This document shows positions 2,321 to 38,874 of a stretch of DNA of 64,000 nucleotides, piece by piece. Both the position numbers and the translations under genes were made by a program. Each line of letters begins with the position of its first letter. The stretch's first letter is position 1. Source of the stretch: Mobula hypostoma (lineage: Eukaryota); the NCBI RefSeq assembly GCF_963921235.1, contig NC_086097.1:148864001-148928000 (forward strand), read 5' to 3'. Below the pieces are notes generated by a model, which worked only from the letters and a program-made list of their open reading frames with translations, did not search any database and was not told where the DNA came from.

Positions 2321-2381
2321 GAAGGGGAATAAATCCAAGCGGTTAAAAGCTGAGGAAGCTGAGGAGGATGAAATTCCTCAG
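2321..2381 (+). CDS. Topoisomerase I gene, putative charged N-terminal exon (xKGNKSKRLKAEEAEEDEIPQ)
   Basis: Strong pyrimidine tract ending tttttttAG at 2320 and CAG|GTATAT donor. 61 bp, phase 2 in and phase 0 out, so it joins in frame to 16356. K/E-rich like the TOP1 N-terminal domain. Confidence 0.65.
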
Positions 2382-2969
2382 GTATATTTTTTATATTTTT
2401 TAACTGATCTTGCTGCTATAATTAATGAACTAAACCAATCTTAAGGTAGATGATATCTACTGCCTTTGCAATTTTTATTCTTTAATGCGAGGGTGTCATT
2501 GGTCACAAAATGCATTGGACACCCAAGTGATTCCAGCAGTGAAAGATTGCCTCAGTGCTGAAGTCCTGCTGCATTGACTTGTGAATGATGGCAGAGAATT
2601 AAACAGCTAACAGAAGGAGCTGGTTCCAAGAGCATCTCCATCCTTAACTATAATTCACATGCCAGTCCTAAAAATGAAGACACTTTGAGCTGTAGAAGTA
2701 CTAGGCAGGTCCATTTCTGTGGCCTTTTGAAGGTCCTGCCATCACAGAAGCTGTTGTCAGCTATTTCAATCCATTACCTATGAGGCTTACAGTAAAGGCA
2801 GTGAAACAAGATTTGTACTCTGAAGCTAGCTGTGCACCTGGTTAAGTCTCTTGCTGTGCATTTGCAAGAATGGTAACTACCTGACAGTATGGGAAAATTG
2901 TCGGATATGCTCAGTTCTCAGAAAAGTAACGGCAAATATTATTGACAGTGCTCATCTCGAGCAGTTGCT

Positions 2970-3171
2970 GGCTGGTTGCGTAGTGGCATCAGCGCCAGAC
3001 TTTGGAGCAAAGGCTTCCAAGTTCGAATCCAACCGGCTCCCTTGCATGCTTTCCATCCATGCTGGGTTGAGCGTCGAGCTAGCAATTTGACCTCGTAAAA
3101 ATAAGAAAGCCTGCTTAAAAAAAAAACGCCATCATGACGTTCCACTCGGAGTTAAGGACTTTCTTCTTCTT
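2970..3171 (+). mobile_element. tRNA-derived SINE, copy 1
   Basis: A-box-like GCGTAGTGG and B-box GTTCGAATCC. Body shared with the copy at 11944. (CTT)n tail. Confidence 0.7.
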
Positions 3172-4431
3172 CATCTGGACCAGTGAGCCATTCCCAAATA
3201 TCCCCTTTATCTTTATTTTCCCCTTCAGCTCCCACTGCCCTGAGATGGTGATATTGCCCACATTGGGAACCACTGATCTGGAGCATACTTGTCAAGTTTC
3301 AGTTTTGATTTTTGTCTGGGTTATTTGGCTCAGGGCCTCATTTTAGCCTTAGTCCAAAGAGACTAAACAACTAAATTCTGAAGATGAAATTAATTTCACT
3401 TTTCTACAGCATATGACTGAATGCTGAGATGGAGGACTGGTAAAACTGACCGTTGGAATCAAGGGGAGAGCATTCCTGTGACGACAATCATATCTTAATC
3501 AAAGATATTTATGTAGATCACTCAGCCCTTGGATATTGTTACAGGGATTTCTCAAGGTAGTAGCCTTGATTCAATCACTTTCAGCTACATCATCATAAAA
3601 TCGTAACTACCCAACATTCAGTTGTATTCATAGCTTGTCTGAGATTGCAACCACACATAGTTTGAGGTCTTCCTGTAAACAACTATATTTAGGACTGAGC
3701 TGAAAGTTGCCAAATAACATTTCTGCTCCTAGCCATACGAGTGGTCAGCAAAAGACCATCTCCAGAATGAGAATCTTAATTGTCAACAATATTACCATCA
3801 CTGAATCGGTATCCTGGGAGTCACTTTTTGAAAACTTATTGGGAACAGCTAACTAAACACTTCCTTCCAAGAACAGCTCAGGGGAGAAACTAGTAACTTC
3901 AAATTTAAATTACAAAACACTTTCAGTGATTTCTTGTGATCTCAGTTTTGTTCCAAATCTCCTTTAAGTTCCTTTGTAAGTGTCCCTACACCCCTCACTT
4001 AATTTTACTTGGGATCTTGTACACTCCCAGACTGCCCTCCCTGCTGGCCACCCATCTCCCCTATGGTACCTGCAGAGTGATGCAGATAAGAGCACATTAA
4101 AGAAAGTAAAAGGAAAATTTTCTGGTTCGTGATTGCATCTGATTTTGGATAACCTTGGATTTCAGTCAGATATTGGTGAGCGCTGGTTGAAGGTTTAAAT
4201 GATGAATGAAACACGGTCAAGCTCATCAGTTATGACCATTTCCCAATAATAACAGTCTCACAGAACATGCAGGTTTGGAGAATGATGTTTTCTTTGAAAG
4301 TTTATTTAGCACCTTCAATTCCTCCCAATCTATTTGGCACCATAATTCATTTCCAGATTGGAGCCCAAACAGATCTAGTAGCTAATACTTGTATTCATGG
4401 ATTGCAGAAATTTAGCTTGTGATAATGATAT

Positions 4432-4562
4432 ACAGGTTAAGTACCCCCATCCAAAACTAGAAAACCTTCGAAATCTGAAATTTTCTTGAGAGCTGACATG
4501 ATGTCACAAATGGAAAATTCCACCTGACCTTGGGAAGGTTCCCAGGCAATGTGCAGGTCTCT
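4432..4562 (+). mobile_element. Terminal fragment of a Tigger/pogo-like DNA transposon
   Basis: TA-CAGGTTAAGTACCC terminus and GCTGACATGATGTCACAAATGGAAAATTCCAC, resembling Tigger4-type ends as recalled. A transposase fragment resumes at 8632. Confidence 0.55.
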
Positions 4563-4564
4563 GC

Positions 4565-7500
4565 ACATAAGACCATAAGACAAAGGAGCAGAAGTTAGCC
4601 ATTCGGCCCATCGAGTCTGCTCCGCCATTTTATCATGAGCTGATCCATTCTCCCATTTAGTCCCATTCCCCTGCCTTCTCACCATAACCTTTGATGCCCT
4701 GGCTACTCAAATACCTATCAATCTCTGCCTTGAATACACCCAGTGACTTGGCCTCCACTGCTGCCCGTGGCAACAAATTCCATAGATTCACCACTCTCTG
4801 ACTAAAAAAATTCCTTTGCATTTCTGTTCTGAATGGGCGCCCTTCAATCCTTAAGTCATGCCCTCTCGTACTAGACTCCCCCATCATGGGAAACAACTTT
4901 GCCACATCCACTCTGTCCATGCCTTTCAACATTCGAAATGTTTCTATGAGGTCTCCTCTCATTCTTCTAAACTCCAAGGAATACAGTGCAAGAGCGGACA
5001 AACGTTCCTCATATGTTAACCCTCTCATTCCGGGAATCATTCTAATGAATCTTCTCCGTACCCTCTCCAACGTCAGCACATCCTTTCTTAAATAAGGAGA
5101 CCAAAACTGCCCACAGTACTCCAAGTGAGGTCTCACCAGCGCCTTATACAGCCTCAACATCACATCCCTGCTCCTATACTCTATTCCTCTAGAAATGAAT
5201 GCCAACATTGCATTCGCCTTCTTCACTACTGACTCAACTTGGAGGTTAACTTTAAGGGTATCCTGTACGAGGACTCCCAAGTCCCGTTGCATCTCTGAAC
5301 TTTGAATTCTTTCCCCATTTAAATAATAGTCTGCCCGTTTATTTTTTCTGCCAAAGGGCATAACCATACACTTTCCAACATTGTACTTCATTTGCCACTT
5401 CTCTGCCCATTCTTCCAATCTATCCAAGTCTCTCTGCAGACTCTCCGTTTCCTCAGCACTACCGGCCCCTCCACCTATCTTCGTATCGTCAGCAAACTTA
5501 GCGACAAAGCCATCTATTCCATAATCCAGATCGTTGATGTACAATGTAAAAAGAAGCGGCCCCAACACGGACCCCTATGGAACACCACTGGTAACCGGCA
5601 GCCAACCAGAATAGGATCCCTTTATTCCCACTCTCTGTTTCCTGCCAATCAGCCAACGCTCTATCCACGTATGTAACTTTCCTGTAATTCCATGGGCTCT
5701 TAAGTAGCCTCATGTGTGGCAGCTTGTCAAAGGCCTTCTGAAAATCCAAATATACAACATCCACTACATCTCCCTTGTCTAGCCTACTGGTAATTTCCTC
5801 AAAAAATTGTAATAGGTTTGTCAGGCAGGATTTTCCTTTAAGGAATTTATGCTGAGTTCTACCTATCTTGTCATATGCCTCCAGGTACTCTGTAACCTCA
5901 TCCTTGACAATCGACTCCAACAACTTTCCAACCACTGATGTCAAGCTAACAGGTCTATAATTTCCTTTTTGCTTCCTTGCACCCTTCTTAAATAGCGGAG
6001 TGACATTTGCAATCTTCCAGTCCTCCAGAACCTTGCCAGAATCTATCGACTTTTGAAAGGTCATCGCTAATGCCTCCGCAAACTCCACAGCTACTTCCTT
6101 CAGAACATGCGGGTGCATTCCATCTGGTCCGGGAGATTTATCTACCTTTAGACTATTCAGCTTCCTGAGTACTTACTCTGTTGTAATTCTGACTGTGCAC
6201 ACTTCCCTTCCCTACCACCTTTGAGTGTCCGGTATACTGCTGATGTCTTCCTCAGTGAAGACTGATGCAAAACACTCGTTCAGTTCCTCTGCCATCTCCT
6301 TATCTCCCATTACAATTTCTCCAGCATCATTTTCTATCAGTCCTATATCTACTCTCACCTGTCTTTTACTCTTTATATACTTGAAAAAGCTTTTAGTATC
6401 CTCTTTGATATTGTTTGCTAGCTTCCTTTCATAGTTAATCTTTTCCTTCTTAATGACCTTCTTGGTTTGCATTTGTAAGGTTTTAAAAACTTCCCAATCC
6501 TCTGTCTTCCCACTAATTTTTGCTTCCTTGTATGCCCTCTCCTTTGCTTTAACTTTGGCTTTGACTTCTCTTGTCAACCACGGTTGCATCCTTTTTCCAC
6601 TCAAAAATTTCTTCTTTTTTGGAATATACCTGTCTTGCACCTTCCTCACTTCTCGCATAAACTCCAGCCACTGCTGCTCTGCTGTCTTTCCCGCCAGTGT
6701 CCCTTTCCAGTCAACTTTGGCCAGTTCCTCTCTCATGCCACTGTAATTTCCTTTACTCGACTGAAATACCGACACATCAGATTTCGGCTTCTCTTTTTCA
6801 AATTTCACAGTGAACTCAATCAAGTTATGAACACTGCCTCCTTAAGGGTTCCTTCACCTCAATCTCTCTAATCACCTCTGGTTCATTACACAATACCCAA
6901 TCCAGTACAGCCGACCCCTAGTGGGCTCAACAACAAGCTGTTCTAAAAAGCCATCTCGCAGACATTCTACAAATTCTCTCTTGAGATCCAGTGCCGACCT
7001 GATTTTCCCAATCCACTGGCATGTTAAGATCCCCCACAATTATCATAACACTGCCCTTCTGACAAGCCTTTTCTATTTCCTGTTGTAATCTGTAGTCCAC
7101 ATCCCTGCAGCTGTTTGGAGGCCTATAAATAACTGCCATCAGGGTCCTTTTACCCCTGCTATTTCTTAGCTCAACCCATAAAGATTCTGCACCTTCCAAT
7201 CCTATATCACCTCTTTCTAATGATTTAATATCATTTCTTACCAATAAAGCCACGCCCCCCCCCCCCCCCACCCGGCCTACCTTCCTATCCTTCCGATACA
7301 CCGTGTATTCTTGGACGTTCAGCTCCCAGAGACATGCATCCTTTAGCCAGGTCTCAGTGATGGCCACAATATCATACCTGCCAATCTGTAACTGTACGAC
7401 AAGATCGTCCACCTTATTTCTTATGCTGTGGGCATTTAAGTATAACACCTTAAGACCAGTATTTGATACTTTTCGCTTTGATTTGACTGCAACTTTATTG

Positions 7501-8630
7501 CACTGCAACTCATCCCAATGGCTACAAATTTGCCCCATCACCTGCCTGTCTTTCCTGACATCTTTACTGCTCACTATCTTAGATTTATTTCTGTTTTCCC
7601 CTTCCTCCACTCTGTCATTCCGGTTCCCATCCCCCTGCCAAATTAGTTTAAACCCTCTCTAACAGCTCTATTAAACTTTCCCACCAGGATATTGGTCCCC
7701 TTCGGGTTCAGGTGTAACCTGTCCTTTTTGAACAGGTCATACTTCCCCCAGAAGAGATCCCAATTATCCAAGAATCTGAAGCCCTGCCCCCTACACCAGT
7801 CTATCAGCCACGCATTCATCTGCCTGATCCTACTATTCTTGCCCTCGCTAGCACGTGGCACAGGTAGCAATCCCAAGATTACTGCCCTGGAGGTCCTGCT
7901 TCCTAACTCCTGGAAATCTCTCTTCAGGACTTCCTTCTTTGTCCTATCTATGTCGTTGGTACCAACATGTACCAAGACAACTGGCTGCTCACCCTCCCCC
8001 TTCAGAATATTCCGGACCCGATCCGAGACATCCCATACCCTGGCACCTGGGAGACAACACACCAGGCGGGTATCTCTATCAGGCTCACAAAATCTCCTGT
8101 CCGTTCCCCTCACTATGGAATCCCCTACGACTACCGCATTTCTCTTCTCCTTCCTTCTCTCCTGCACAACAGCGCCAGGCTCGGTGCCAGAGACCCGGTC
8201 ACCGTGGGCATCCCCTATCAGGTCATCCCCCTCAACAGCATCCGGAACAAGATATTTGTTGCTGAGGGGGACAGCCACAGGGGTGCTCTCCACTATCTGG
8301 GCATTTCCCTTCCCTCTCTTGACAGTGACCCAGTTTTCTGACCCCTGTAGCCTAGGGATGACTACCTCCCTGTAGCTCCTGTCTATCACCTCTTCACTTT
8401 CCCTAATAAGCAGTAGGTCATCAACAGCTCCAGATCCCTAACTCAGTCTCTGAGGTGCTGCATCTCTGTGCACCTGGCGCAGATGTGGCCATCAGGGAGG
8501 CTGGACCTCTCCCAGGATTCCCATATCTGACACCCTGAACAAAACACTAACCCTGCAGGCATGCCATCTAATTCTACAGGAATGAAACATCTCACAGTTC
8601 TGAGGAGTGACCTCGCATATGTAATGAACA
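4565..8630 (-). mobile_element. Near full-length degenerate CR1 LINE (ORF1 zinc finger + SGNH esterase; ORF2 APE + RT)
   Basis: ORF1 has CSGC..CARC, VVGDSIVR and HVGTND. ORF2 fragments show YLNAHSIRNK, AITETWL, NYRPVSLTS, LDFQKAFD and KFADDTK. Short tandem-repeat 3' tail at about 4565. Confidence 0.93.
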
Positions 8631-8631
8631 A

Positions 8632-8970
8632 AAGTTAATGAAAAATAGAAAAACACTGCAAAAAGCAAAAAAATAAAAAAAACTCAATCATGTATTGCAA
8701 GAATGGATCCGTGGGTATAGGAGTGAACGTGTGCTGCTTGACAGTAGGCTGGTTGTGAAACAAGCAAAGATCTATCATGAACAGAGAAGTGAAGATAATC
8801 ATGAATATTCTGCAGGCTGGTTGCAGAAATTTAAGAGAAGGCACAGCATTAAATTTATAATGATTTTAAGTTTCAAAGATAAAGCTTCTGGCTGACCATG
8901 AAACAGCAGAGAAATACATTGGGTTTGCAAAGATTGTCAGTGATGAAAATCTAACACCAGAACAAGCCTA
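8632..8970 (+). mobile_element. Tigger/pogo transposase fragment (CENP-B-type HTH)
   Basis: EWIR...KQAKIYHE...YSAGWLQKFKRRHSIKF, followed by out-of-frame FAKIVSDENLTPEQ. Confidence 0.8.
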
Positions 8971-11900
8971 CATAGAAAACCTATAGCACAGTATAGGCCC
9001 TTTGGCCCACAAAGCTGTGCTGAACATGTCCTTACCTTAGAAATTACCTAGGGTTACCCACAGCCCTCTCTTTTTCCTAAGTTCCATGTACCTATCTTAA
9101 AAGACCCTATTGTATTCACCTCCACCACCGTCGCCGGCAGCCTATTTCACGCACTCACCACTCTCTGCGTTTTAAAAAAAAACAAACTAACTGTGATATC
9201 TCCTCTGTACCTACTTCCAAACACCTTAAAACTGTGCCCTCTCATGCTAGCCATTTCAACCCTAGAAAAAAGCCTCTGACTATCCAGACAATCAATGCCT
9301 CTCATCATCATATACACCTCTATCAGGTCACATTTCATCCTCCAACACTCCAAGGAGAAAAGGCCAAGTTCATTCAACCTGTTCTTATAAGGCATGCTCC
9401 TCACTCTGGTCAACATCCTTGTATATCTCCTCTGCACCCTTTCTATGGTTTCCACATCCTTCCTGTAGTGAGGTGACCAGAACTGAGCACAGTACTGCAA
9501 GTGGGGTCTGACCAGGATCCTATATGGCTGCAACGTCACCTCTCGGCTCCTAAACTTAATCCCACGATTGATGAAGGCCAATGCACCCTATGCTTTCCTA
9601 ACCACAGAGTCAACCTGCCCAGCAGCTTTGAGTGTCCTAAGGACTCTGACCCCAAGATCCCTCTGATCTTCCACACTACCAAGAGTCTTACCATTAATAC
9701 TATATTCTGCCATCATATTTGACCTACCAAAATGAACCACCTCACACTTAGCTCTGTTGAACTCCATCTGCCACTTCTCAACCCAGTTTTGCATCCTATC
9801 AATGTCCTGCTGTAACCTCTGACAGCCCTCCACACTATCCACAACACCTCCAACCTTTGTGTCATCAGCAAATTACCAACCCATCCCTCCACTTCTTCAT
9901 CCAGGTCATTTATAAAACTCACGAAGAGTAGGGGTCCCAGAACTGATCCCTGAGGCACTCCACTGGTCACTAACCTCCATGCAGAATATGGCCTGTCTAT
10001 AACCACTCTTTGCCTTCTGTGGGCAAGCTAGTTCTGGATCCACAAACCAATGTCCCTTTGGATCCCATGCCTCCTTACTTTTTCAATAAGCCTTGCATGG
10101 GGTACCTTGTCAAATGCCTTGCTGAAATCCATATACACTACATCTACTGTTCTACCTTCATTGACGTATTTAGTCACATCCTCAGAAAATTCAATCAGGC
10201 TCATAAGGCATGACCTGCTTTTGACAAAGCCATGCTGACTATTCCTAATTATATTATGCCTCTCCAAATGTTCATAAATCCTGCTTCTCAAGATCATCTC
10301 CATCAACTTACCAACCACTGAAGTAAGACTCACTGGTCTATAATTTCCTGGGCTATTTCTACTCCCTTTCTTAAATAAGGGAACAGCATCTGCAACCCTC
10401 GAATCATCCGGAACCTCTCCCATCCCCATTGATGATGCAAAGATCATCGCCAGAGGCTCAGCAATCTCCACCCTCACCTCCTACAGTAGCCTGGGGTACA
10501 TCTCATCCGGTCCCGGTGACTTATCCAACTTGATGCTTTCCAAAAGCTCCAGCACATCCTGTTTCTTAATATCTACATGCTCAAGCTTTTCAGTCTGCTG
10601 TAAGTCATCCCGATAATCGGCAATTCCTTTTCCGTAGTGAATACTGAAGCAAAGTACTCATTAAGTACCTCTGCTATCTCCTCTGGTTCCATACACACTT
10701 TTCTGCTGTCACACTCGATTGGTCCTATTCTCTCACGTCTTATCCTCTTGCTGTTTGCATACTTGTAGAATGCCTTGGTGTTTTCCTTAATTCTGTCCAC
10801 CAAGGCCTTCTCATGGCCTCTTCTGGCTCTCCTAATTCCTTTCTTGAGCTCCTTCCTGCTAGCCTTATAATCTTCTAGCTCTCTATCATCACCTAGCTTT
10901 TGGAACCTTTCGTAGGCTCTTCTTGACTAGATTTACAACAGCTTTTGTACACCACAGTTCCTGTACCCTACCATCCTTTCCCTGTCTCGTTGGAACATAC
11001 CTATGCAGAACTCCATGCAAATATCCCCTGAACATATGCCATATTTCTTTCATATATTTCCCTGAGAATATCTGTTTCCAATTTATGCTTCCAAATTAAT
11101 ATTGCACCTTTCCAGCATCCGTTTCCCCATCTGCTCCTCTATCCCTGTTACTATTGGGCGGCCTATAAAAAACACCCAGTAAAGATATTAATCACTTCCT
11201 ATTCCTAACCTCCACCCACAGAGACTCCATAAACAATCCCTCCATGACGTCCACCTTTTCTGCAGCCGTGACACTATCTCTGATCAGCAGTGCCACGCCC
11301 CCACCTCTTTTACCTCCCCCTTGTCCTTTCCGAAACATCTAAACCCTGGTGCTTGAAGTAACCATTCCTGTCCCTGAGCCATCCAAGTCTCTGTAATGAC
11401 CACCACATCATAGCTCCAAGTACTGATCCACACTCTAAGCTCACCTGCTTTGTTCACAATACTCCTGGCGTTAAAATAGACACATCTCAAACGGCCCATC
11501 TGAGTGCGACCCTTCTCTATCACCTGCCTATCCTCCCTCACACAGCCTCCAAGCTTTCTCTATTCGTGAGCCAACCGCCTCTTCCCCAGTCTCTTCAGCT
11601 CAGTTCCCACCCCCCCCCCAAACAATTCTGGTTTAAACTCTCTTCAGTAGCCTTAGCAAACCTCCCTGCCAGTATATTGGACCCCCTCAGATTCAAGTGC
11701 AACCCATCCTTTTTGTACAGGTCACACCTGCCCCAAAAGAGATCCTAATGATCCAGAAATATGAATCCCTGCCCCCTGCTCCAATCCCTCAGCCACACAT
11801 TTACCCTCCACCTCATTCTATTCCTGTACTCACTGTCGCATGGCACAGGCAGTAATCCCGAGATTTCTACCTTTGCGGTCCTGCTCCTCAACTTCCTTTC

Positions 11901-15475: not shown

Positions 15476-16355
15476 TCTTTGTCAGTATTTGGAAGAGTTG
15501 CAGGATTAATAAATAGAATCCGACCAACTTAATATATCCAGCAATATGATTATCATTTTGAAATTATTACACAGGAAAGATGAAGTTAAGACACCTATTT
15601 TGCTTATATGAACAATGTACTGAGAGGGAAGGAACAGATATTACTTAGTGAGAAATTCCATGATATTTGCATAACTTGTGATCAAAAACTAATTCCTCCA
15701 GCATTAACTTTTTAAGACAGAGATGCTGCATATCCTGAGATCTTAACCAGGTGAAATTTTGGGCATGTCCAAGCAGTTGTCGTCCTTGAATCTTCTCAGT
15801 TAAAAAGTTCGTGTGCTACTGAGCATTCAACGTCCTGGTCATAGTATTTAAAAATATTGCTTGTTGAGTTGGAACAGATAAGAAGGTAACCTATTGTCAG
15901 CCTATGTTTAGTGATGAGGATTTAATGTTAAGTTTTATTTTGGAATTTACTCTTAAGCCTTTAATTCAGGGATTCACAACCTTTATACCTTGGATCCCTA
16001 CTATTAACAGAGGGATCTGTGAGCCTCAAGTTGGGAGCCCTTGTTTAAGTTAAAATATTACTGTGGTCCAGTTGTAAGGTATTGTTCACCAGAATATTAC
16101 TTCAAAATGAATATGAATAACTAGAAATGAAAACTATCTAAATTAATTGTCTGCTCAGTAGCATGAGAGGTTAGTGTGTTATCAAGCAGCTGGTTATCCC
16201 AACTGAATAGGATAAGTTTGGCACAATCTTTACTACTTTAGCAACCAAGAAATAGACACTATATAAAGAAAACATTAAAATAGACAGAATTAACTTTGTT
16301 TCCAAACAAATCTTGCTGCTCATTGTATTAATATCCTGTTTAAATTTCAAAACAG

Positions 16356-16516
16356 ATGTCATACAAGGCATATGGAAAAAGACCTGTAAAGCAAACGAAG
16401 AATGTGAAGAACAACATCATGTCGAAAGAGAAGAAGGAACTGAAGAAGGATGGAAAAAACAAGAAACAATTAAAAGAGAAGGAAGAGAAAAAGAAAGATA
16501 CAGAGAAGTGGAAATG
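16356..16516 (+). CDS. Topoisomerase I gene, Lys-rich N-terminal exon (MSYKAYGKRPVKQTKNVKNNIMSKEKKELKKDGKNKKQLKEKEEKKKDTEKWK-W)
   Basis: aacAG acceptor and TG|GTGAGA donor. 161 bp. Ends in KWK+TG, which with the G at 38759 gives the KWKWWEEE motif of nuclear TOP1. Confidence 0.85.
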
Positions 16517-16894
16517 GTGAGATTGAAGTTTAGGATTATCATTATACAACAGTACACAGGTACTGTGTGCTTAGCGTTTGGAATACATTCCTAGTAATAA
16601 GTGCAATAATGGAGACTGACAGTAATTATGTGCCAGCAGCTTAATATAAGCACCTGACCTCCCTGTTTCTGTGCATGAAATCCCTGCTGTCTTTGAGCAC
16701 TCCACAGCAATGAACTGCATGTGGCAAACTAATTTTTAAGGCTGCTGTTGGATATGCTGAGGAGCAGTGATGTTTTGGGGGCTGTCTTTTTGGCTGCATT
16801 ATTGACAAGCATCTGAATCCTACATTTTCTTTTGTCACCTCCTTTTGGAATTGATGTGCAGACAAGCAGTAATGATTCAAGATGTATTTAATAT

Positions 16895-19800
16895 ATGGTA
16901 CTCAAGGTGTTGTATCTAAATGTGCGTAGTATAAGAAATAAGGTGGATGATCTTGTTGCAATATTACAGATTGCCAGGTATGATGTTGTGGCCATCGCTA
17001 GATCGTGGCTGAAGGATGGTTGTAGTTGGGAGCTGAATATCCAAGGTTACACATTATATCGGAGGGATAGGAAGGTAGGCAGAGGGGATGGTGTGGCTCT
17101 ACTGGTAAAGAATGGCATCAAACCAGTAGAAAGATGTGACATAGGATCAGAAGATCTTGAATCTTTGCGGGTTGAGTTAAGAAATTGCAAAGGTAAAAGG
17201 TCTCTGGCAATTATATACAGGCCTCCCAACAGTGTCTGGGATGTGGACCACAGATTACAACAGGAAATAGAAAAGGCGAGTCAAAAGGGCATGTTATGGT
17301 AGTCATGGGACATTTTCACATGCAGGTCAATTGGGAAAATCAGGTTGGTAATGGATCTCGAGAGAGTGAGTTTGTTGAATGCCCAAGAGATAGCTTTTTA
17401 GAGCAGTTTGTCATTGAGCCTATTAGGGGATCAGCTATACTGGATTGGGTGTTATGTATGAACCAGAGATGATTAGGGAGCTTAAGGTAAAATAACCCTC
17501 AGGAACCAGTGATTAGAATATGATTGTGTTGTCCAACTTGAAATTAGATAGGGAGAAAGTAAAGTCTGATGCAGCAGTGTTTCAGTGGAGTAAGGGAAAT
17601 TACAGTGGTATGAGAAAGGAGTTGGCCAAAGGAAACTGGAAGGAGCTGCTGGCAGGGATGACAGTAGAGCAGCAATGGCGTGCATTTCTTTTTTTTTTTA
17701 ATTTTATTTTTATTTGGATAAGGAGTTCACAATTATCATGTACTTTTTTCACACATATAACCTTTTCCATTTTTTTATATGTATAAAACTACAATTATTT
17801 ATACATTCTTAAGTACACATTGAGATGATATAAAAGGAAAATAAACATTTAAATAGATAATTATGTACTTTGGTAAATCTAACCTATTAGGCTAAGTAAT
17901 GAAATTAGTTGTTAAGAAAAATGGTAATAATAGTTTCCATACAACCCTTCTGGACCATTTCCACTGGTCCAAAATGTTGCATACAAGCCTATATACCAAC
18001 CATTGTAGGTGTTTATATCCCAATTTGTTCGTGCTTGTTCCTGCCCGCAGACATAATTATCTAATCCCTATGTACTTACTTAGTTAATTTTTTCATTTTT
18101 TTTTTATCCCTTTCCCAAATCTTTCCCTTTACTTGTGTTAATTCTCTATTTTCCAAAAAAAAACAACAACAAACATTTAGACTAGGGGTGCTTACGTTAG
18201 CAATATTACTGTGTTGATGAGAAGAGCAATATAAATCATTAGGAGAGTCATCTAAAGTCTGCTCGCATTGGGGTTATATATTCAATCCATTTATTCCAGA
18301 TTTGATAAAATGTTTCTTTTTGAGTTCTCAGGGAGTAGGTCAACTTTTCCATTTTAAATATTTCCAAGATAATTTCGTACCGATCTTCTAATGTAGGTGG
18401 TATTGGATTTAGCCATTTTCTAGTGATTGATTTCTTACTTGCCGCTAAGAGGGCCTGCAGCAACTTTATATCTTCCTTCTGTTCAAGGAACAATACATGC
18501 CCCAAATAGAGCGTCTCAAAGTTCAGAGGTATCTGGGACCTAAGTACCTTAACTAATGTTCTATGAATACCTTCCCAAAATAGACTTAATTTAGGGCAAT
18601 CGCAGAAAATATGAAAATGATTTGCCTCCTTGGAGCCGCACCTTCTCCAACACATCACATTTGTATCTTTATATTTTTCCTGATATGGGGTCTTGAAGTA
18701 TCTTATAATGTTTTTCCAACAATGTTCTCTCCAAGTCAAAGAATTAGTCGAGGACCATTGAAAGCTGCAGATTTTCCCCCAAGCCTCCTCTGAAAGTACC
18801 AACCCCGCTTCTTTCTCCCACTTCTCTTTAATATACAGTGTATTTACATTTTTAGCATGGGAGAGTGCATTATATAGGCGAGAAACTGATTTACTAGGTA
18901 TTGAACTGCAAGCCGAATTCAGAATCTTGAAAACTTCTAATTCTACTGTTGATAGGTCTGTATATCTACAACTCTGGTTAACATAGTTCCGTATTTGAAG
19001 GTACCTAAAAAAGTCATTATGTTCTAGGCCATGTTTGTCCTGCAGGATTTGGAAACTTTGTAATACTCTTTTATCTATAAATGAGAGGTAGGTTGTAAGA
19101 CCTTTCTTTATCCATAGCTCAAATCTTTTATCTCCTCTGTTGGGAAGGAATTCGGTATCATATGCACACCATCTAAAGAGTTTTAACATGTTATTAATTC
19201 CACATGAATTAACCACCTTCTGCCATACTTTTAATGTAAGATTTATCCAAGCATTATTAAATTTTTCCAACTGTGCCATCAATCCTTTGTCAGCTATTGA
19301 GGCCTGAAGAGGAAAACTGTCAACTAATCCAAATTCTATTTCCTTCCATCTAGCCTTATATTCCCTATTACACCAATATAACAGAGGGGTTATCTGTGAG
19401 GCATAAAAATAATTTCTCAGGCAAGGAAGAACCATACCTCCTCTTTCCTTCCCTAACTGTAAAGTGTTATATCGAATTCTAGGTTTCCTTCCTTAATGGC
19501 GTGCATTTCTGAGAAAAATGAGGAAGGTGCAGGACATGTGTTCCAAAAATGAAGAAATACTAAAATGATAAAATAGTACAACTGTGGCTGACAAGGGAAG
19601 TCAAAGCTATTGTAAAAGCAAAAGAAAAGGCATACAACAAAGCAAAAATTAGTGGGAAGATGGAGGATTCAGAAGTTTTTAAAAACCTAGAGAGAGCAAC
19701 TAAAATAATCATTAGAAGGGAAAAGATGAAATATGAAAGCAAGCTAGATATCAATGTGGATAGTAGAAGTTTTTTCCAAGTGTGTTTAAAAATAAGAGAA

Positions 19801-28393: not shown

Positions 28394-30174
28394 CAACACA
28401 CATCAAAGTTGCTGGTGAATGCAGCAGGCCAGGCAGCATCTCTAGGAAGAGGTACAGTCGATGTTTCAGGCTGAGACCCTTCGTAGGGACTAACTGAAGG
28501 AAGAGTTAGTAAGAGATTTGAGAGGGGGAGGGGGAGATCCAAAATGATAGGAGAAGACAGGAGGGGGAGGGATGGAGCCAAGAGCTGGACAGGTGATTGG
28601 CAAAGGGGATATGAGAGGATCATGGGACAGGAGGCCCAGGGAGAAAGACAAGGGGGGGGGGGGACCACAGAGGATGAGCAAGGGGCATAGTCAGAGGGAG
28701 AGAAAGGAGAGTGAGAGAAAGAATGTGTGTATAAAAATAAATAACAGATGGGGTACAAGGGGGAGGTGGGGCATTAGCGGAAGTTAGAGAAGTCGATGTT
28801 CATGCCATCAGGTTGGAGGCTACCCAGACGGAATATAAGGTGTTGTTCCTCCAACCTGAGTATGGCTTCATCTTTACAGTAGAGGAGGCCGTGGATAGAC
28901 ATGTCAGAATGGGAATGGGATGTGGAATTAAAATGTGTGGCCACTGGGAGATCCTGCTTTCTCTGGCGGACAGAGCGTAGGTGTTCAGCAAAGCGGTCTC
29001 CCAGTCTGCGTCAGGTCTCGCCAATATATAGAAGGCCACATCGGGAGCACCGGACGCAGTATATCACCCCAGTCGACTCACAGGTGAAGTGTCGCCTCAC
29101 CTGGAAGGACTGTTTGGGGCCCTGAATGGTGGCAAGGGAGGAAGTGTAAGGGCATGTGTAGCACTTGTTCTGCTTACAAGGATAAGTGCCGGGAGGGATG
29201 GGGGGGATGAATAGACAAGGAAGTCGCGTAGGGAGCGATCCCTGCGGAAAGCGGGGCGGGGGGCGGGGAGGGAAAGATGTGCTCAGTGGTGGGATCCCGT
29301 TGGAGGTGGCGGAAGTTACGGAGAATAATATGTTGGACCCGGAGGCTGGTTGGGTGGTACGTGAGGACCGGGGAACCCTATTCCTACTGGGGTGGTGGGA
29401 GGATGGAGTGAGAGCAGATGTACGTGAAATGGGGGAGATGCATTTGAGAGCAGAGTTGATAGCGGAGGAAGGGAAGCCCCTTTCTTTAAAAAAGGAGGAC
29501 ATCTCCCTCGTCCTGGAATGAAAAGCCTCATCCTGAGAGCAGATGCGGCAGAGACGGAGGAATTGCAAGAAGGGGATGGCATTTTTGCAAGAGACCAGGT
29601 GAGAAGAGGAATAGTCCAGATAGCTGTGAGAGTCAGTAGGCTTATAGTAGACATCAGTGGATAAGCTGTCTCCAGAGACAGAGACAGAAAGATCTAGAAA
29701 GGGGAGGGAGGTGTCGGAAATGGACCAGGTAAACTTGAGGGCAGGGTGAAAGTTGGAAGCAAAGTTAATAAAGTCAACGAGCTCAGCATGCATGCAGGAA
29801 GCAGCGCCAATGCAGTCGTCGATGTAGCGAAGGAAAAGTGGGGGACAGATACCAGAATAGGCACAGAACATAGATTGTTCCACAAAGCCAACAAAAAGGC
29901 AGGCATAGCTAGGACCCATACGGGTGCCCATAGCTACACCTTTAGTTTGGAGGAAGTGGGAGGAGCCGAAGGAGAAATTATTAAGAGTAAGGACTAATTC
30001 TGCTAGACGGAGCAGAGTGGTGGTAGAGGGGAACTGATTAGGTCTGGAATCCAAAAAGAAGCGGAGAGCTTTGAGACCTTCCTGATGGGGGATGGAAGTA
30101 TAAAGGGACTGGACATCCATGGTGAAAATAAAGTGGTGGGGGCCAACTTAAAATCATCGAAAAGTTTAAGAGCG
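28394..30174 (-). mobile_element. 5'-truncated Penelope-like element (RT + Cys motif + GIY-YIG) with 10-bp TSD
   Basis: DVQSLYTSIP, GVAMGTRMGPSYA, RYIDD, GVIYCVRCSRCGLLYIGET. TSD TGCCTTCTGT at 28384-28393 and 30175-30184. Confidence 0.92.
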
Positions 30175-32327
30175 TGCCTTCTGTGCTCCTTTTGACAGTC
30201 AAAACATGGAGAAACCATCACGAACTCCCACAGCCCCCAGTGATCCTGTGATTTCAGTCTGAGGCTGACATGCTAGCAGCCTTCAGTGGGGTAAACACAC
30301 AAGAAGCAAATGGACTGAAGGAGTATCTGGCCAAGTACAAAAGATGTATGCTGATCAACTTGCTGGAGTTTTCACTGAGCTCCTTAACCTCTTGCTTTGG
30401 CATTCTGATGTACTCACCTGCTTCAAGCAGGCTTCACTTTTTCCGTAATCAGCTCAATGACCATCGTCCAATAGCACTTGCATCCACTGTGATTAAATGT
30501 TTTGAGAGGTTGGTGATTAAAACAGATCAACTCCTGCCTGAGAAGATAATTGGATTCACTTCAGTTTGCCTACTGGCACAACAGGTCCACAGCAGATGCC
30601 ATCTCATTGACTCAGCTCTGGAACATCTGGACAGCAAAGATGCATGGACCTCTTTATCGACTGCAGCTCAGCATTCAATACCATCATCCCCTCAAAACTA
30701 ATCAGTAAGCTGGAAAACCCTGGCCTCGTTACCTCCCTGTACAATTAGATCTTTGATTTACTCATTTGCAGATCCCAGTAGGTTTGGATTAGCAACAACA
30801 TCTCCACAATCTCCATCAGCACAGGTGCCCCACAAGGCTGTCTGCTTAGCCCTGCTGTACTTGCTTTATACTTGTGACTGTGTGGTAATGCCATATTCAA
30901 GTTTGTTGATGACAAAAACTGAATCAAAGGTCGTGATGGCTCAGCACATAGGAGAGAGATTGAAAATCTGGCTGAGTGGTACCACAACAAAAACCTCTAC
31001 TCAATGCCAGCAAGACCAAGGAGCTGATCATTGATTTCAGGAGGAGAAGACCAGAGATCTATGAGCCAGTCCTCATCAGAGGTGGAGACAGTCAGCAGCT
31101 TTAAATGCCTTTTGTTATTTTGGAGGACTTGTACTGGACTTGAGTAAGTGGCATTATGAAGAAAGCAAGGCAGCACCTCTTCTTCCTTAGAAGTTTGCAA
31201 AGATTTGATAAACTTCTATAGATGTGTGCTGGAAGGGTTCATTGACTGGTTGTATCATGGCCTGATATGGAAACACCAATGCCCTTGAACAGCAAATCTT
31301 TTTATATATATAAAAAAAATAGTGGATGAGGTCCAGTCCATCACAGGTAAAGCCCTCCCCACCACAGAGCACATCTTTGCAGAGCATTTTCACAGGAAAG
31401 CAGCATCCATTGTTCAGGACCCCCACCACCCAGGTCCTGCTGTCTTCTTGCTGCCATCAAGAAGCAGATACAGGAGTCTCAGGACTTGCACAAGCAGGTT
31501 CAGGAACTGTTGTTAACCTTCATCCATTGGACTCTTGAACCAGAGGGGATAATGTCACTTAACTTCACTTACTCCATCACTGAAATGTTACAACAACCTG
31601 TTGGCTCACTTTTAAGGACTCTTCCGCTCGTTCTCAAAATTGATTGCTTGTTTATTTATTAATATTTCTTTCCTATTGGCACCGTTTGTTGTCTTTTGTA
31701 CACTGGTTGGATGCTCAGGTTGCTGTGGTCTTTCATTGATTCTATTACGGTTATTCTATTATGGATTTATGGTTATGGTTTTTGGAATTATTGAGTAAGC
31801 CTGCAAGAAAATGAGTGTGTTATATATGGTGACATATATTTGCTTTGAACTTTGATATCGCTTGTGAAACTTCAAAGCTGTGCCTCATATTTAATGGCAA
31901 TGGAAGTAGAAATGTATCCCACAGAAAAATAAATTTAGGTAATTGGCATAGAATCTTGAACTTGCATCTTCATGTTTCTGAAGTAAAGGTGCTATGATTG
32001 AGGCTAGTATTAACTGCCACTTCAGGCTTTATTGCATCAGTAATTTTGGAAATTCTGTAGAAATAAGAATATACAAGATTTGAAATTCACACTTTAATGG
32101 CAGCATCTAAAAAATGTATGATGTTTTGCAAAGAAATATTCTAAAATGATTCAAAATATTGAAGCTACCAACAATAACTGAAGCTGTTCCTTCTTACCTT
32201 TCATACTCCTTGTCTGCTCATATAACAAATCTTAATAGGAACTGAAGGTGAGGGTAGTTTTTGTCTGCAGGGTCAGTTATCGTGTACACATTTTTTGTGT
32301 GGTGTGGGGAACTAAATTAGTAGAGCC

Positions 32328-32337
32328 ACAGGAAGTG
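32328..32337 (+). promoter_or_regulatory. ETS/GABP-like site about 100 bp upstream of the presequence exon
   Basis: ACAGGAAGTG motif match only. Confidence 0.25.
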
Positions 32338-32434
32338 TTTCTTAGTTGAAAGTTCAAAACAGAATGACAAGTATTTTATCAATAGTATTTCGAAGGGAGC
32401 CTAGGCATAGGGCTATCAACCCTAAGCCAGTGTT

Positions 32435-32565
32435 ATGCTCAGAGCTGTGATCTCTATGACAAAAGTTGCTTTTATTAACTTCAACATTAGGCATGCTTGC
32501 TTATCTTGGAGCACTGTAAGAAGCACAATTACTCTTGTTCGGAGTTTACATTTTGCATTGAAGAG
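32435..32565 (+). CDS. TOP1MT: Putative alternative first coding exon with mitochondrial targeting presequence (MLRAVISMTKVAFINFNIRHACLSWSTVRSTITLVRSLHFALK-R)
   Basis: ATG at 32435 with an in-frame TAA at 32423. 43 codons with no D/E, rich in R/K/S/T/L. Perfect AG|GTAAGT donor in phase 2, giving R-WEEE on joining 38759. Lies in unique, non-repeat sequence. Confidence 0.75.
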
Positions 32566-33097
32566 GTAAGTTGCAGCTTTCAGTTCTGCAGCAAGTGGGA
32601 ATTGCTTAGTAACAGATTGTTTTCAAAAACCAAGCTGTCTATCAATATTTATTAGTTCAGTCATTTCTAATTTATTTTATGCTGGTGAATGTAAAGGGAA
32701 ACTGTGCAGTTAATAACAGGACCTCTGACAGTGGTGATGTGTAGTAGGATTGTAGAGTTGAAGTTTGCAGTTCCCTGAAAGCGACTGCACGGTTTGATAG
32801 GGTAGTAAAGAGTATAGCATTCTAGCTGTGTGGGGGCTTTGGAGAGGGTGCAGAAGAGGTTTTTTAGGATGCTGCCTGGATTATTTACCCTTTCTTCCTC
32901 TCTTTCTCCCCCCCCCCCCACTATTTTTCCATTTCTCATTGTGATTACCCTCTCACCCTATCCATCACCTCCCTCTTGGCCTGAAACATCAACTTTTTAT
33001 TCCTTTCCTAGGATACTGTCCAACCTGTTGAGTGTATGTACCTCCCTCTGTTTCTCCTTCCCTTCTTTCCATGGTTCACCGCCTGTAAAGAAATTAT

Positions 33098-33724
33098 ACT
33101 GCCCATGAAAAGTATTCCCCCCCCCCCCGGAAGTGTTCATGCTTTAATGTTCTACAGCACTGAATCAGTGGATTTAATTTTTTTTTTATATACTGATCAA
33201 CAGAAAAAGACCCTTTTTGTTTCAAAGTGAAGACAGATCTCTACAAAGTGAGCTAAATTAATAACAAATACAAAACACAATAATTGCATAAGTATTCACC
33301 TCGCGCCCCCCCGCCCCAGTATGACACACCAAATCACTGGTGCAGCAGTTGGTTTTAGAAGTCATATAATTAGTTAAATTGAGATGGTTTTTAAAGACCT
33401 TTGTACAGTCCAGGTGTTTCACTGATTGCAGTAAAGCTGATTGAGACCTATCCATATAGACTCAAGACTGTAATTGCTGCCAAAGGTGCATCTACTAAAT
33501 ACTGACTTGAAGGGGTGAATGTTTTTGCAGTTTGTATTTATATTAATTTTATATTTGTAATTAATTCAGATCATTTTGTAGAGATCTGTTTTCACTTTGA
33601 CATGAAGGAGTCTTATTCTGTTGATCAGTGTCAAAAAAAGCCAAATTAAATCCACTGTAATTCAATGTTGTAAAACAATAAAGCATAAAAACTTCCAGAG
33701 GGGGAGGTGAATACTTTTTATAGG
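33098..33724. mobile_element. Non-autonomous Tc1-like DNA transposon with about 200-bp inverted repeats
   Basis: AAAAGTATTC-Cn...GTGGATTTAATT...CAGATCTCTACAAA on the left mirrors TTTGTAGAGATCTG...AATTAAATCCAC...GAATACTTTT on the right. No ORF. Confidence 0.75.
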
Positions 33725-34566
33725 TTGGGTAAATTTTTTCTTTAGCCCTTTACCTCTTCCACCTATACCCTCCCAGTTTCTCACTTCATCCCCTCCCCCA
33801 GTCATGCACCTCCCACTCATCTGGTCTCACCTATCATCTGCTGCCAGCATTTACCTTCTCCCCCCAACCCCCACACCTTATTCTGGCTTCTGCCCCCTTT
33901 CCTTTTGAGACCTGATGAAGGATCTCAGCCTGAAACATAGACTGTTTATTCCCTGCATGCTTCCTGACTTCAGTTCAACCAGCAGTTTGTGCCTGTTGCT
34001 CAAGATTTTCAGCATCTGGAGGATCTTGTGTGTATAGCATGCATGGCTTTATTAATTGAGGCAATGAGTTAAGAGTCAGGAAGTTGTGTGTTGCAGGTTT
34101 ATAAAACTGATCTACCTGCATCAAAGGGATTGCATTCAATTGTGATTGCCTCATAATAGGGGAAGAATGTGGTGGCTTTGGACAGGGTGCAGAAGAGGTT
34201 TTCCAGAATGTTGCTTAGTGGGCATGTGCTTAAAAGGAGAAGTTAGGCAAACGTGTTGGTTTTTCTGGAATGGCAGAAGCTGAGGGGAGTCTGGATGGAA
34301 GTATATAAAATTGAGAGACCTAGATAGACAGCCAGTATAATTTTTCCTGGGTTAAAATACTTACACACAGGAACACTGCTCAGCCCAAAATGAATGGGGG
34401 AAAGTTCAAAAGACAACTGTTAGCATAGAGTAATGGATTCCTGGATGTGCTATCAAGGGTTATGGTGGAGTCAGACATGATGGGGGCATTTAAGAGGATC
34501 CTAGGTATATAAATGTGCATCAAAAGGAGGGATGTGGTCCACATGCAGAAGGATTTAAAAAGAGAT

Positions 34567-37400
34567 CGTGGGAGATTTTAATTTTCCACACATTGACTGG
34601 GAAGCCGATACTGTAAAAGGGCTGGATGGTTTGGAGATTGTAAAATGTGTGCAGGATAGTTTTTTGCAGCAATACATAGAGGTACCAACTAGAGAAGGGG
34701 CAGTGTTGGATCTCCTGTTAGGGAATGAGATAGGTCAAGTGACGGAGGTTTGTGTTGGGGAGCACTTAGGGTCCAGTGATCACAATGCTATTAGTTTCAA
34801 TATAATTATGGAGAAGGATAGGTCTAGACCCAGGGTTGAGATTTTTGATTGGAGAAAGGCTAACTTTGAGGAAATGCAAAAGGATTTAGAAGGAGTGGAT
34901 TGGGACAATTTGTTTTATGGGAAGAATGTAATAGAGAAATGGAGGTCATTTAAAGGTGAAATTTTGAGGGTACAGAATGTTCCTGTTAGGTTGAAAGGAA
35001 AGGTTAAAAGTTTGAGAGAGCCATGGTTTTCAAGGGATATTGGAAACTTGGCTCAGAAAAAGAGAGATATCTACAATAAGTATAGGCAGCATGGAGTAAA
35101 TGAGGTGTTCGAGGAATATAAAGAATGTAGAAAGAATCTTAAGAAAGAAATTAGAAGAGCTAAAAGAAGGTATAAGGTTGCTTTGGCAAGTAAGCTGAAA
35201 ATAAATCCCATGGGTTTCTACAGTTATATTAATAGCAAAAGGATAGTGAGGAATAAAATTGGTCCCTTAGAGAATCAGAGTGGAGAGTTATGTGTGGAGC
35301 CAAAAGAGATGGGGGAGATTCTGAACAATTTCTTTTCTTCGCTATTCACGAAGGAGAAGGACATTGAATTGTGTAAGGTAAAGGAAACAAGAAGGGTAGT
35401 TATGGAAAGTATGACAATTAAAGAAGAGGAAGTACTGGCGCTTTTAAGGAATATAAAAGTGGATAAGTCTCCGGGTCCTGACAGGATATTCCCTAGGACC
35501 TTGAGGGAAGTTAGTGTGGAAATAGCAGGGGCTCTGACAGAAATATTTCAAATACTTTATACTTTATTGTCGCCAAACAATCGATACTAGAATATACAAT
35601 CATCACAGCGATATTTGATTCTGCACTTCCCACTCCCTGGATTACAAATATTAAATATTAAAAATAGTAAAAAAAAATAGTAAATATTAAACACTTAAAT
35701 TATAAATCATAAATAAAAAATAGAAAAATGGAAAGTAAGGTAGTGCAAAAAACTGAGAGGCAGGTCCAGGTATTTGGAGGGTCAGGATCCATTCAGCAGT
35801 CTTATCACAGTTGGAAAGAAGCTGTTCCCAAATATGGCCGTACGAGTCTTCAAGCTCCTGAGTTTTCTCCCGGAGGGAAGAGGGACGAAAAGTGTATTGG
35901 CTGGGTGGGTCGTGTCCTTGATTATCCTGGTAGCACTGCTCCAACAGCGTGCGGTATAGATGTCATTAGAAACAGGGATGGTGCCGGAGGATTGGTGTAT
36001 TTACTCATGTTGTTCCATTGTTTACAAAGGGTTCTGAGAGTAAACCTAGCAATTATCGGCCTCTGAGTTTGATGTCAGTGGTGGGTAAATTAATGGAAAG
36101 TATTCTTAGAGATGGTATATATAATTATCTGGATAGACAGGGTCTGATTAGGAACAGTCAACATGGGTTTGTGCGTGGAAGGTCATGTTTGAATTTTTTG
36201 AAGAGGTTACTGGGAAAGTTGAGGGTAAAGCGGTGGATGTTGTCTATGTGGACTTCAGTAAGGCCTTTGACAAGATTCCACATGGCAGGTTAGTTAAGAA
36301 GGTTCAATCGTTAGGTATTAATATTGAAGTAGTAAAATGGATTCAGCAGTGGCTGGATAGGAGACACCAGAGAGTATGGTGGATAACTGTTTGTCAGGTT
36401 GGAGGCCGGCGACAAGTGGTGTGCCTCAGGAATCTGTACTGGGTCCAAAGTTGTTTGTCATATACATTAATGATCTGGATAATCAGATGAATAAGTATGC
36501 AGATGATACTAAGATAGGTGGAGTTGTGGTTAATGAAGTAGGTTTTCAAAGCTTGCAGAGAGATATAGGCCAGTTGGAAGAGTGGGCTGAAAGATGGCAG
36601 ATGGAGTTTAATGCTGATAAATGTGAGGTGCTACATTTTAGTAGGACTAATCAAAATAGGACATACATGGTAAATGGTAGGGCATTGAAGAATGCAGTAG
36701 AACAGAGGGATCTAGGAATAATGGTGCATAGTTCCCTGAAGGTGGAATCTCATGTGGATAGGGTGGTGAAGAAAGCTTTTGGTATGCTGGCCTTTATTAA
36801 TCAGAGCATTGAGTATAGGAGTTGGGATGTAATGTTGAAATTGTACAAGACATTGGTGAGGCCAAATTTGGAGTATTGTGTACAGTTTTGGTCACCGAAT
36901 TATAGGAAAGATGTCAACAAAATAGAGTACAGAGAAGATTTACTAGAATGTTACCTGGGTTTCATCATCTAAGTTACAGAGAAAAGTTGAACAAGTTGGG
37001 TCTTTATTCTTTGAAACGTAGGAGGTTGAGGGGGTCTTGATAGAGGTATTTAAAATTATGAGGGGATAGATAGAGTTGACGTGAATAGGCTTTTTCCACT
37101 GAGGGGGGGAGATTCAAACAAGAGGACATGAGTTGAGAGTTAAAGGGCAAAAGTTTAGGGGTAACATGAGGAGGAACTTCTTTACTCAGAGAGTGGTAGC
37201 TGTGTGGAACGAGCTTCCAGCAGAAGTGGTTGAGGCAGGTTCGATGTTGTCAAGTAAAATTGGACAGCTATATGGATAGGAAAGGATTGGAGGGTTATGA
37301 GCTGAGTACAGGTCGGTGGGACTAGGTGAGAATAAGAGTTCGGCATGGACTAGAAGGGCCGAAATGGCCTGTTTCTGTGCTATAATTGTTAATCTGGTTA
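34567..37400 (+). mobile_element. 5'-truncated CR1 LINE interrupted by a Rex1-like fragment
   Basis: 340-aa ORF from GDFNFPHIDW to KSPGPD, resuming at about 35958 with NYRPLSL, DFSKAFD and KYADDTK. Confidence 0.92.
35551..35958 (-). mobile_element. Rex1/Babar-like 3' fragment inserted in CR1
   Basis: Minus strand encodes the ...NSFFPTVIRLLN terminus and an (ATAAAGT)n-type tail. Confidence 0.65.
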
Positions 37401-38758
37401 TATAGATTTAGGTTAATTAGGCAGCATTAGTTTAATTAGTTTGGCATAACATTGGGCTGAGCAGCTGTTCTTGTGCTATATTATTCTATGTTTTACTCCT
37501 GAAACTTTTTGTTTTCAGTCCTGAGATATATCAATTTATTGGTGAATGAATGTCATGTGAGACAAATAATTATGGGATGGAATTGTATTCACTACTAGAA
37601 TTGCAGCAGGTGTAGTCAGCTGAGAAATTACAGAAAATTAATTTAATGGACAAGCCTGAAGACTGCTTCAGAGAACCTACTTGACCAAGTGGTGCAAGGT
37701 TTTAAATAAAGTTGATACAAGCACCAAGCATTTTAAAGGCTTACTTTTGCATGAATTTCCCAAGGACAGCATAGATTACACAAATGACATTTATGAAAGT
37801 GCTGTCCAAACAAATGTTCTTTTCTTTATATCACTATGTATGTACAGGCTTCTGTCCATTGGTGTTTCAAATGCACCAAGGAGTTTGGCAATTATGTGGA
37901 TCATGCAAGTTGCAATAAGTCCCTACTTTTTTCCCCCAGTTTTCCCCAAAATCAAGGCACTATGCAATCCAATTTCTAAGTGTTATTTTTATCTTCCTCA
38001 GTGGTAGTAGAATGTGTATTTCATTTAACTCTGAATGTATCCAGTGAGCATAGCATTTGAACATATTTATAGACAGTATTTTAGCTTAGGGAACAGTTTT
38101 CACATTCAAACTAGCTAATAATCAAATGATGTATCTGAACTGCAAGTTTTTTTTTAAATGACAGTCTAACTATTCTAGGATCAAGGACTGACTTCTGAAA
38201 CATTAAAGACGCATTCCGATATAATCACAGGGGCAAACACTTGTCCAGAGATTATCTCCTTTACTGGTTAGTGCAGCAGCAGAACTGCACTGTCTCAATA
38301 AACAGGATAAATGGACAATAAAAAGGCTAAGGGCTGTAATCTCCAGCAAGTACAGTATTTCACAATTGAGAGGAGGGGTGGGAGGAAGAGTGTTTTCATG
38401 GGTTCAAGTGGTATAAATCTTGCCTCATAAATTTAATATAGTACATTTTGAAATTCTCCAAAGGCTGGGGACAGGAGTTGTATCATGGTCCAGCATTTGA
38501 AAAGGATAAAGTAAGTAATGTACCTGGATCCTTCACATCGTAACTTTTTAAACAAAAGGAGATTGTTCCTTGTGATCTTTCCAGATAAGTATTAGTGAAA
38601 GTTGTGAGTGCCCTCAGTAATGTATGGAAAATGATTTGGGTGTATTGAGAAATACTGATTGGTTGATAGTCTTTTCCTTCACTTAAACATTTGTTATTGG
38701 GGGGTAAAATAGTCTAACCTAACCTGCTCCCTGTGGAATTTGTACATTCTGTCATCAG

Positions 38759-38874
38759 GTGGGAAGAGGAAATCTATGGAGATGGTGTAAAATGGATGTT
38801 TCTGGAACATAAAGGTCCGTTATTTGCACCTGAATATGAGAACCTTCCCTCGGGCATCAATTTCTATTATGATG
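38759..38874 (+). CDS. TOP1MT: Topoisomerase IB core exon (WEEEIYGDGVKWMFLEHKGPLFAPEYENLPSGINFYYDG)
   Basis: cAG acceptor and G|GTGAGT donor. 116 bp. Conserved KW.FLEHKGP.FAP.YE.LP motif. Confidence 0.95.

Follow-up and report, generated by a model that had tools for sequence, protein, structure and literature searches.

Structure and identity of the locus

The stretch analysed here (the window) comprises 64,000 nucleotides of Mobula hypostoma NC_086097.1 (148,864,001–148,928,000; coordinates prefixed C1 refer to the same chromosome) and carries part of a TOP1MT-like topoisomerase I gene in which two alternative N-termini lead into one catalytic core. A sequence-only reading of the window had proposed one such gene with two N-termini, and this was borne out by an open frame across module and core, spliced contigs, and paired models in relatives; its exon coordinates and phases all proved correct when the sequence was re-read (Table 1). 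As it had also claimed, the first core exon accepts two phase-2 donors, the long-form one (16516) being found in contigs and the presequence one (32565) being predicted from RefSeq models and conservation, not from reads. Each donor completes a codon with the G at 38759, keeping the frame.

The charged N-terminal module comprises 12 exons, of which exons 1–10 lie upstream of the window (C1:148827977-148859371). Exon B, the last of them, is identical to the end of XP_062904148.1 (384 aa, M. hypostoma), which is named 'DNA ligase 1-like', contains no Pfam domain, and maps to 12 exons from C1:148827977 to window position 16516. The KWK-TG|GT exon end occurs once on the plus strand of the 64 kb. 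Core exon boundaries were fixed for the first five of 13, and the other eight (core exons 6–13) follow beyond the downstream edge of the window as far as about C1:148948898. In all, C1 gave 13 core matches, in line with the 13 terminal exons that TOP1MT has in common with TOP1. Module and core formed a single open frame across the 17 exons mapped, every junction being GT-AG. The presequence and core exons matched XP_062913773.1 (604 aa), whose N-terminus is identical to the presequence exon translation. Because an in-frame stop lies four codons 5' of the ATG at 32435, this ATG must be the translation start.

The Topoisom_I_N, Topoisom_I, and Topo_C_assoc domains all scored above the cut-off in protein P0004, in which the catalytic residues R327, K371, R429, H471, and Y562 correspond to the human TOP1MT numbering plus 3 (PMC10081982, Table 3). 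By its domains and catalytic residues, the locus is predicted to encode a eukaryotic type IB topoisomerase. C2 carries a second type IB locus, which has charged N-terminal exons of its own, and the ray genome showed only these two loci. A core tree of 39 rows (41 less two identical), chosen among hits, rooted on TOP1 rows, and including 29 non-TOP1 rows besides a catfish one, placed the window gene on the TOP1MT side, alongside the ray, shark, and chimaera sequences, and the C2 gene with TOP1 (support 100/99).

Three intact large-Maf frames were found in the genome, at C1:148.12 Mb (L040), at C2:178.47 Mb (L039), and on C55 (L041). Two of them are 0.7 Mb and 0.9 Mb away from the topoisomerase loci, which fits the expectation for a duplicated block. 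We take the C1 and C2 genes to be MafA-like and MafB-like, as next to human TOP1MT and TOP1. Exons 11 and 12 agree in phase with the two final N-terminal exons of TOP1 on C2, and exon 12 has the KWK-TG|GT end in common with the last of these. The core tree agrees with the TOP1MT affinity originally proposed, and we assign the window gene by descent as a full TOP1MT orthologue beside a separate TOP1.

Table 1. Coding exons mapped within the window (window positions)
Feature	Position	Strand	Splice sites, phase, and remarks
Exon 11 of the 12-exon charged N-terminal module (exon A)	2321..2381	+	AG/GT, phase 2 to 0
Exon 12 (exon B), Lys-rich	16356..16516	+	AG/GT, phase 0 to 2; end KWK-TG|GT
Presequence exon, coding part (44 aa including junction codon)	32435..32565	+	ATG 32435, donor GTAAGT, phase 2
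Core exon 1	38759..38874	+	acceptor common to both N-termini
Core exon 2	42108..42229	+	
Core exon 3	42664..42786	+	
Core exon 4	51242..51429	+	
Core exon 5	57084..57228	+	

Splicing of the long form

Four of the eight listed runs (X1, X2, X3, and X5) were aligned as contigs to window positions 15950–16930; X1, X2, and X3 represent three organisms from three studies, and X5 comes from the organism and study of X1. X1, X2, and X3 each yielded one contig over 16353–16519 that spanned exon B with overhangs on both sides. The overhang on the exon A side was at least 235 letters long and matched the end of exon A exactly in X1 and with few changes in X2 and X3, while the 26 overhanging letters on the core side corresponded to 38762–38787, giving a total of 29 letters into core exon 1. 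Junctions 2381>16356 and 16516>38759 were both spliced in contigs of three of the four runs, and in all three organisms exon B was left exactly at donor 16516 and followed by core exon 1. An overlap of 29 letters plus one shared G would be expected for a contig ending at a graph branch, the second path of which might derive from the presequence exon or from unspliced intron. X5 did not cover exon B, and 16544–16873 was uncovered in all four aligned runs; neither was used as evidence. A retrocopy as the origin of the spliced contigs was rejected, as all 10 matches to protein P0001 (32 candidates scored) lie at this locus.

Properties of the two N-termini

The presequence has a net charge of +7, no acidic residues (D/E), and a hydrophobic moment of 0.53, a composition that fits a putative mitochondrial presequence. 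The short form is 604 aa long (71 kDa), and the long form is 906–944 aa long (106–110 kDa) with an N-terminus of 346–384 aa. This tail consists of 22% Lys/Arg and 18% Asp/Glu and contains five monopartite motifs resembling a nuclear localization signal (NLS) and no bipartite pattern. It is of low complexity and probably disordered, with a predicted local distance difference test score (pLDDT) of 0.44 in the Atlas model. Since it has no presequence and carries basic NLS-like clusters, the long form most likely acts in the nucleus beside TOP1 in the ray. Of the additional nuclear Top1 isoform put forward by the sequence-only reading, the extra isoform beside a conventional TOP1 held up, and the nuclear location is graded as probable. 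At the putative start regions, the observed/expected CpG ratio was 0.81–0.88 for the first exons of the long form and 0.08–0.32 around the presequence exon.

Conservation of the charged module

The module was present in 12 other chondrichthyans, with identities to the ray module of 86–87% in stingrays, 49–71% in other rays and sharks, and 36% in chimaera, and both forms were modelled in sharks, rays, and chimaera. Within an otherwise fast-evolving tail, a block at about residues 155–190 of P0001 (C1:148836945-148839792, L006) was near-invariant from chimaera to rays and is a candidate binding motif. A search with this block returned four matches in 1.84 billion representatives, all from chondrichthyan relatives; it had no match at or above 0.9 in the ESM Atlas and was not found in TOP1 tails. 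A pan-vertebrate version of the motif was rejected: the short block pattern occurred in 6 of 44 tails, including two from Xenopus and one from a caecilian, but a profile built from these six tails lifted none of the 33 others above shuffled controls.

Range across jawed vertebrates

The junction region of the basking-shark long form, used as a query, gave 965 matches, 120 of which were listed, each row being a cluster, not a species. The W-K/R-W-W junction was present in 104 of the 120 listed matches; 18 of these were TOP1-type, and the non-TOP1 junction rows were mostly named mitochondrial. These non-TOP1 rows ranged over sharks, rays, chimaera, gar, coelacanth, lungfish, amphibians, turtles, crocodilians, lizards, birds, echidna, marsupials, anteater, and horse. 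Primates and rodents did not occur among the 120 listed rows, and the putative loss in human and mouse follows the published descriptions. Long and short models shared an identical 560-aa core in all 10 species pairs evaluated. In nine pairs (Carcharodon, Cetorhinus, Heterodontus, Pristis, Narcine, Leucoraja, Callorhinchus, X. tropicalis, and Tamandua), the short N-terminus was 40–55 aa long with a net charge of +5 to +10 and at most one acidic residue; in the tenth, Przewalski's horse, it was 27 aa long and of unclear type. For X. laevis and Sarcophilus, the cluster listings contained no short form. Because both forms with identical cores extend from chimaera to anteater, the two-form architecture looks ancestral for jawed vertebrates. 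The earlier statement that mammalian TOP1MT carries a single presequence exon agrees with the description for human and disagrees with the horse, anteater, marsupial, and echidna models.

Several models were set aside. The catfish sequences P0114 and P0116, which carry mitochondrial names, were excluded from the range for their long, unplaced branch and a tail end like that of Xenopus top1.2; together with Xenopus top1.2.S they possibly represent a third vertebrate TOP1 paralogue. The gar row likewise sits on a long, unplaced branch, and its short model, with an N-terminus of 12 aa, was rejected as a presequence form, as was the curated horse protein NP_001420475.1 (607 aa, P0147), which starts in the Trp-rich exon without a presequence.

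Further N-terminal variants were observed. Among the batoid models with alternative starts (P0009, P0194-P0197, P0198, P0052, P0204, and P0206), Hypanus showed a third N-terminus, a skate cluster had a 12-aa N-terminus on 45 Logan contigs, and the short forms of skate and Narcine included some with a start one or two exons upstream of the Trp-rich exon. The Scyliorhinus torazame model P0032 joined the Trp-rich exon to the middle of the presequence exon and then to the core; the three aligned contigs go straight to the core. The electric-eel TOP1-type model P0101 had a presequence-like start, which may be a model artefact.

Frog oocyte data

The supplements of PMC9537182 give top1mt-like.L an oocyte nuclear fraction of 0.714, alongside 0.665 for top2a, 0.749 for top2b, 0.722 for topbp1, and 0.351 for top3a. 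The corresponding values are 0.079 for top1.1.L, 0.108 for top1.2.S, and 0.003–0.008 for polrmt, twinkle, ssbp1.S, tfam.L, tfam.S, polg, and polg2 (ssbp1.L has no value). In embryos, the nuclear fraction of top1mt-like.L was 0.75–1.0 from 13 h on, according to the same supplements, which report its relative abundance as 2.38 in the oocyte, 0.65 in the egg, and 1.38 at genome activation; oocyte values were low for top1.1 (0.46) and top1.2 (0.085). The main text of PMC9537182 contains no mention of topoisomerase. In the oocyte partitioning study PMC4764573, a 132-kDa contig mapped to TOP1MT and flagged MT matched a long X. tropicalis entry of the cluster and was not found in the part of the nucleus/cytoplasm table examined; TOP1 is cytosolic there on one spectrum. 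A search of the PMC5688136 phosphoproteome supplements gave no match.

The mitochondrial label has hidden the long form, which may serve frog oocytes as their main nuclear topoisomerase I. Xenopus laevis is said to have a 165-kDa oocyte-specific topoisomerase I, reportedly described by Richard and Bogenhagen, by Pandit in 1996, and by Gebauer in 1996; to our knowledge, its gene has never been identified. It is reported to be a large nuclear enzyme of type IB that is enriched in oocytes and differs from somatic TOP1, and the frog top1mt product fits this description. However, the long frog top1mt models have a calculated mass of 128–130 kDa compared with 165 kDa, and slow gel migration must be assumed. 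The frog top1mt product may be this enzyme.

Proposed model and relation to known systems

We consider it highly probable that the locus is the ray TOP1MT orthologue making two enzymes with one catalytic core, of which the long form is probably nuclear. The long transcript would start about 36 kb upstream of the window in a CpG-retaining patch, run through the 12 exons of the charged N-terminus, skip the presequence exon, and join the core at 38759. The short transcript would start internally in CpG-poor DNA with the presequence exon, which lies inside the last N-terminal intron, and its product would be imported into mitochondria. After the early-vertebrate duplication, the TOP1MT copy would have kept the ancestral tail exons, lengthened the tail, and acquired the presequence exon within the last intron of that tail as an alternative start, and the mitochondria-only gene described for human would be a derived state. 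Because the phases of exons 11 and 12 and the ending of exon 12 match ray TOP1, the duplicate most likely kept the ancestral tail. We infer separate promoters, the targeting of each ray isoform, and this direction of evolution.

The split between TOP1 and TOP1MT has been dated to early vertebrates in PMC10081982, which calls the TOP1MT N-terminus short and does not use the word isoform in its main text. In PMC10081982 and PMC8455175, human TOP1MT is described as having 14 exons and 601 aa and as exclusively mitochondrial, and these papers and PMC2790464 present TOP1MT as mitochondria-only and the duplication as a swap of N-termini. The ray gene resembles human TOP1MT in its orthology by core tree, its 13 core exons, its presequence exon before the core, and its catalytic residues at +3, but it keeps 12 more upstream coding exons, the last of which is spliced to the core past the presequence. 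It resembles nuclear TOP1 in its charged N-terminus and in the phases and ending of the last N-terminal exons, but its core falls in the other clade and its tail is 346–384 aa long compared with about 200 aa in gar TOP1.

UNG1 and UNG2 reach nucleus and mitochondria from one locus by alternative first exons. TOP3A does so by alternative start codons (PMC2770673). Like the ray gene, these systems equip a single catalytic core with two N-termini, of which one is a presequence; unlike them, the gene described here was thought to have ceded nuclear duty to its paralogue, and its nuclear branch spans 12 exons. The isoforms are already present in automated RefSeq models yet apparently unrecognised, and they would be targeted by a known sort of mechanism. 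A literature search, for which subscription papers were mostly out of reach, returned no paper on a long or nuclear TOP1MT form.

Alternative explanations and weight of the evidence

RefSeq annotates the module as a separate gene ending KWKW in all three stingray and devil-ray species where it was found (Mobula, Hemitrygon, and Hypanus), which would agree with gene fission in this group, the module being a separate 346–384-aa gene reading through 16516 and TOP1MT being mitochondria-only here. Reading exon B on into the donor gives Trp-stop, the end point of the split RefSeq model, and poly(A)-signal hexamers lie at 17840 and 19256. However, contigs of three organisms exit exon B at the donor and continue in core exon 1, and N-terminal models without a core also occur in a skate and Sarcophilus, with joined models in the same or close species. 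We regard fission as highly unlikely and, since the contigs join 2381>16356 and 16516>38759, the RefSeq split of the charged module into its own gene as very likely an artefact. The long transcript could instead be real but vestigial or leaky, with no selected function, in keeping with a fast-evolving tail that has no Pfam domain; we also know of no knockout of the long form. Twelve exons nevertheless remain open, the near-invariant block persists from chimaera to rays, and in the frog most of the gene product is nuclear, with an oocyte peak, so we give this explanation little credence.

The long form might also be made but act outside the nucleoplasm in the ray, for example in a cytoplasmic store or ribonucleoprotein granules. 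Top1mt is listed among Xenopus vg1 transport complex proteins in one table row of PMC8861640, and in oocytes 29% of the frog gene product lies outside the nucleus; this share can be the mitochondrial form, however, and embryo values approach 1.0, leaving such a location highly improbable. The sequence-only reading had further suggested a possible intermediate or ancestral state in the origin of TOP1MT. Taken as an intermediate peculiar to cartilaginous fishes, which do keep both modules, this suggestion did not survive: the locus is a full orthologue, and the frog and anteater models keep both modules as do those of chimaera, sharks, and rays, these tetrapod pairs largely refuting it. In addition, PMC10081982 places the duplication in early vertebrates, and a search of the corresponding 4-kb intron of ray TOP1 gave no presequence-like exon. 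We consider an intermediate of this kind extremely improbable.

Several points weigh against the two-enzyme model that we favour. The core-side overlap of 29 letters falls short of the 31 letters required for a bridge, and the sequencing runs are either presumed RNA, as a guess, or unknown in kind. The core tree has no invertebrate outgroup, and the support from relatives consists mostly of automated gene models. Upstream of its last exon, the module was unlike TOP1 N-termini or tetrapod long forms in motif searches, and homology is therefore argued for the last exon or two only. A Lys-rich tail can be expected to carry some basic motifs by chance, which makes NLS-like motifs weak evidence on their own. 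Among the frog data, the values in the PMC9537182 supplements are per gene, not per isoform, and top1mt-like.L was identified by name and elimination, not by sequence. Finally, human Top1mt forced into nuclei binds mitotic chromosomes poorly (PMC2770673), which would fit a role on uncondensed chromatin (e.g. in oocytes) or drift of the human core after loss of the long form.

We lean slightly towards a broader proposal in which TOP1MT is ancestrally dual in jawed vertebrates, its long form being the main oocyte nuclear type IB enzyme and the 165-kDa Xenopus one, kept in horse and anteater, with human and mouse as exceptions. If most jawed vertebrates make nuclear TOP1MT, the presequence was added, not swapped in. 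Non-mammalian models would then have a second nuclear camptothecin target and a possible buffer for TOP1 loss, and a candidate gene is named for the frog oocyte enzyme.

Other features of the window

A long interspersed nuclear element (LINE) lies in pieces at 45864–51045 on the minus strand, within the intron that separates core exons 3 and 4; it has upstream frames and a reverse-transcriptase frame of 824 codons (Pfam RVT_1, E 7e-45). A related partial copy occupies 18251–19492 (minus strand), between exon B and the presequence exon. Retroelement-like intron frames were present at 1–1130, 34559–35587, and 36361–36969 on the plus strand and at 29014–30147 and 59897–60832 on the minus strand, the last of which matches RVT_1. 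Positions 55442–55627 contain a tandem duplication of a 92-base unit with 96% matches.

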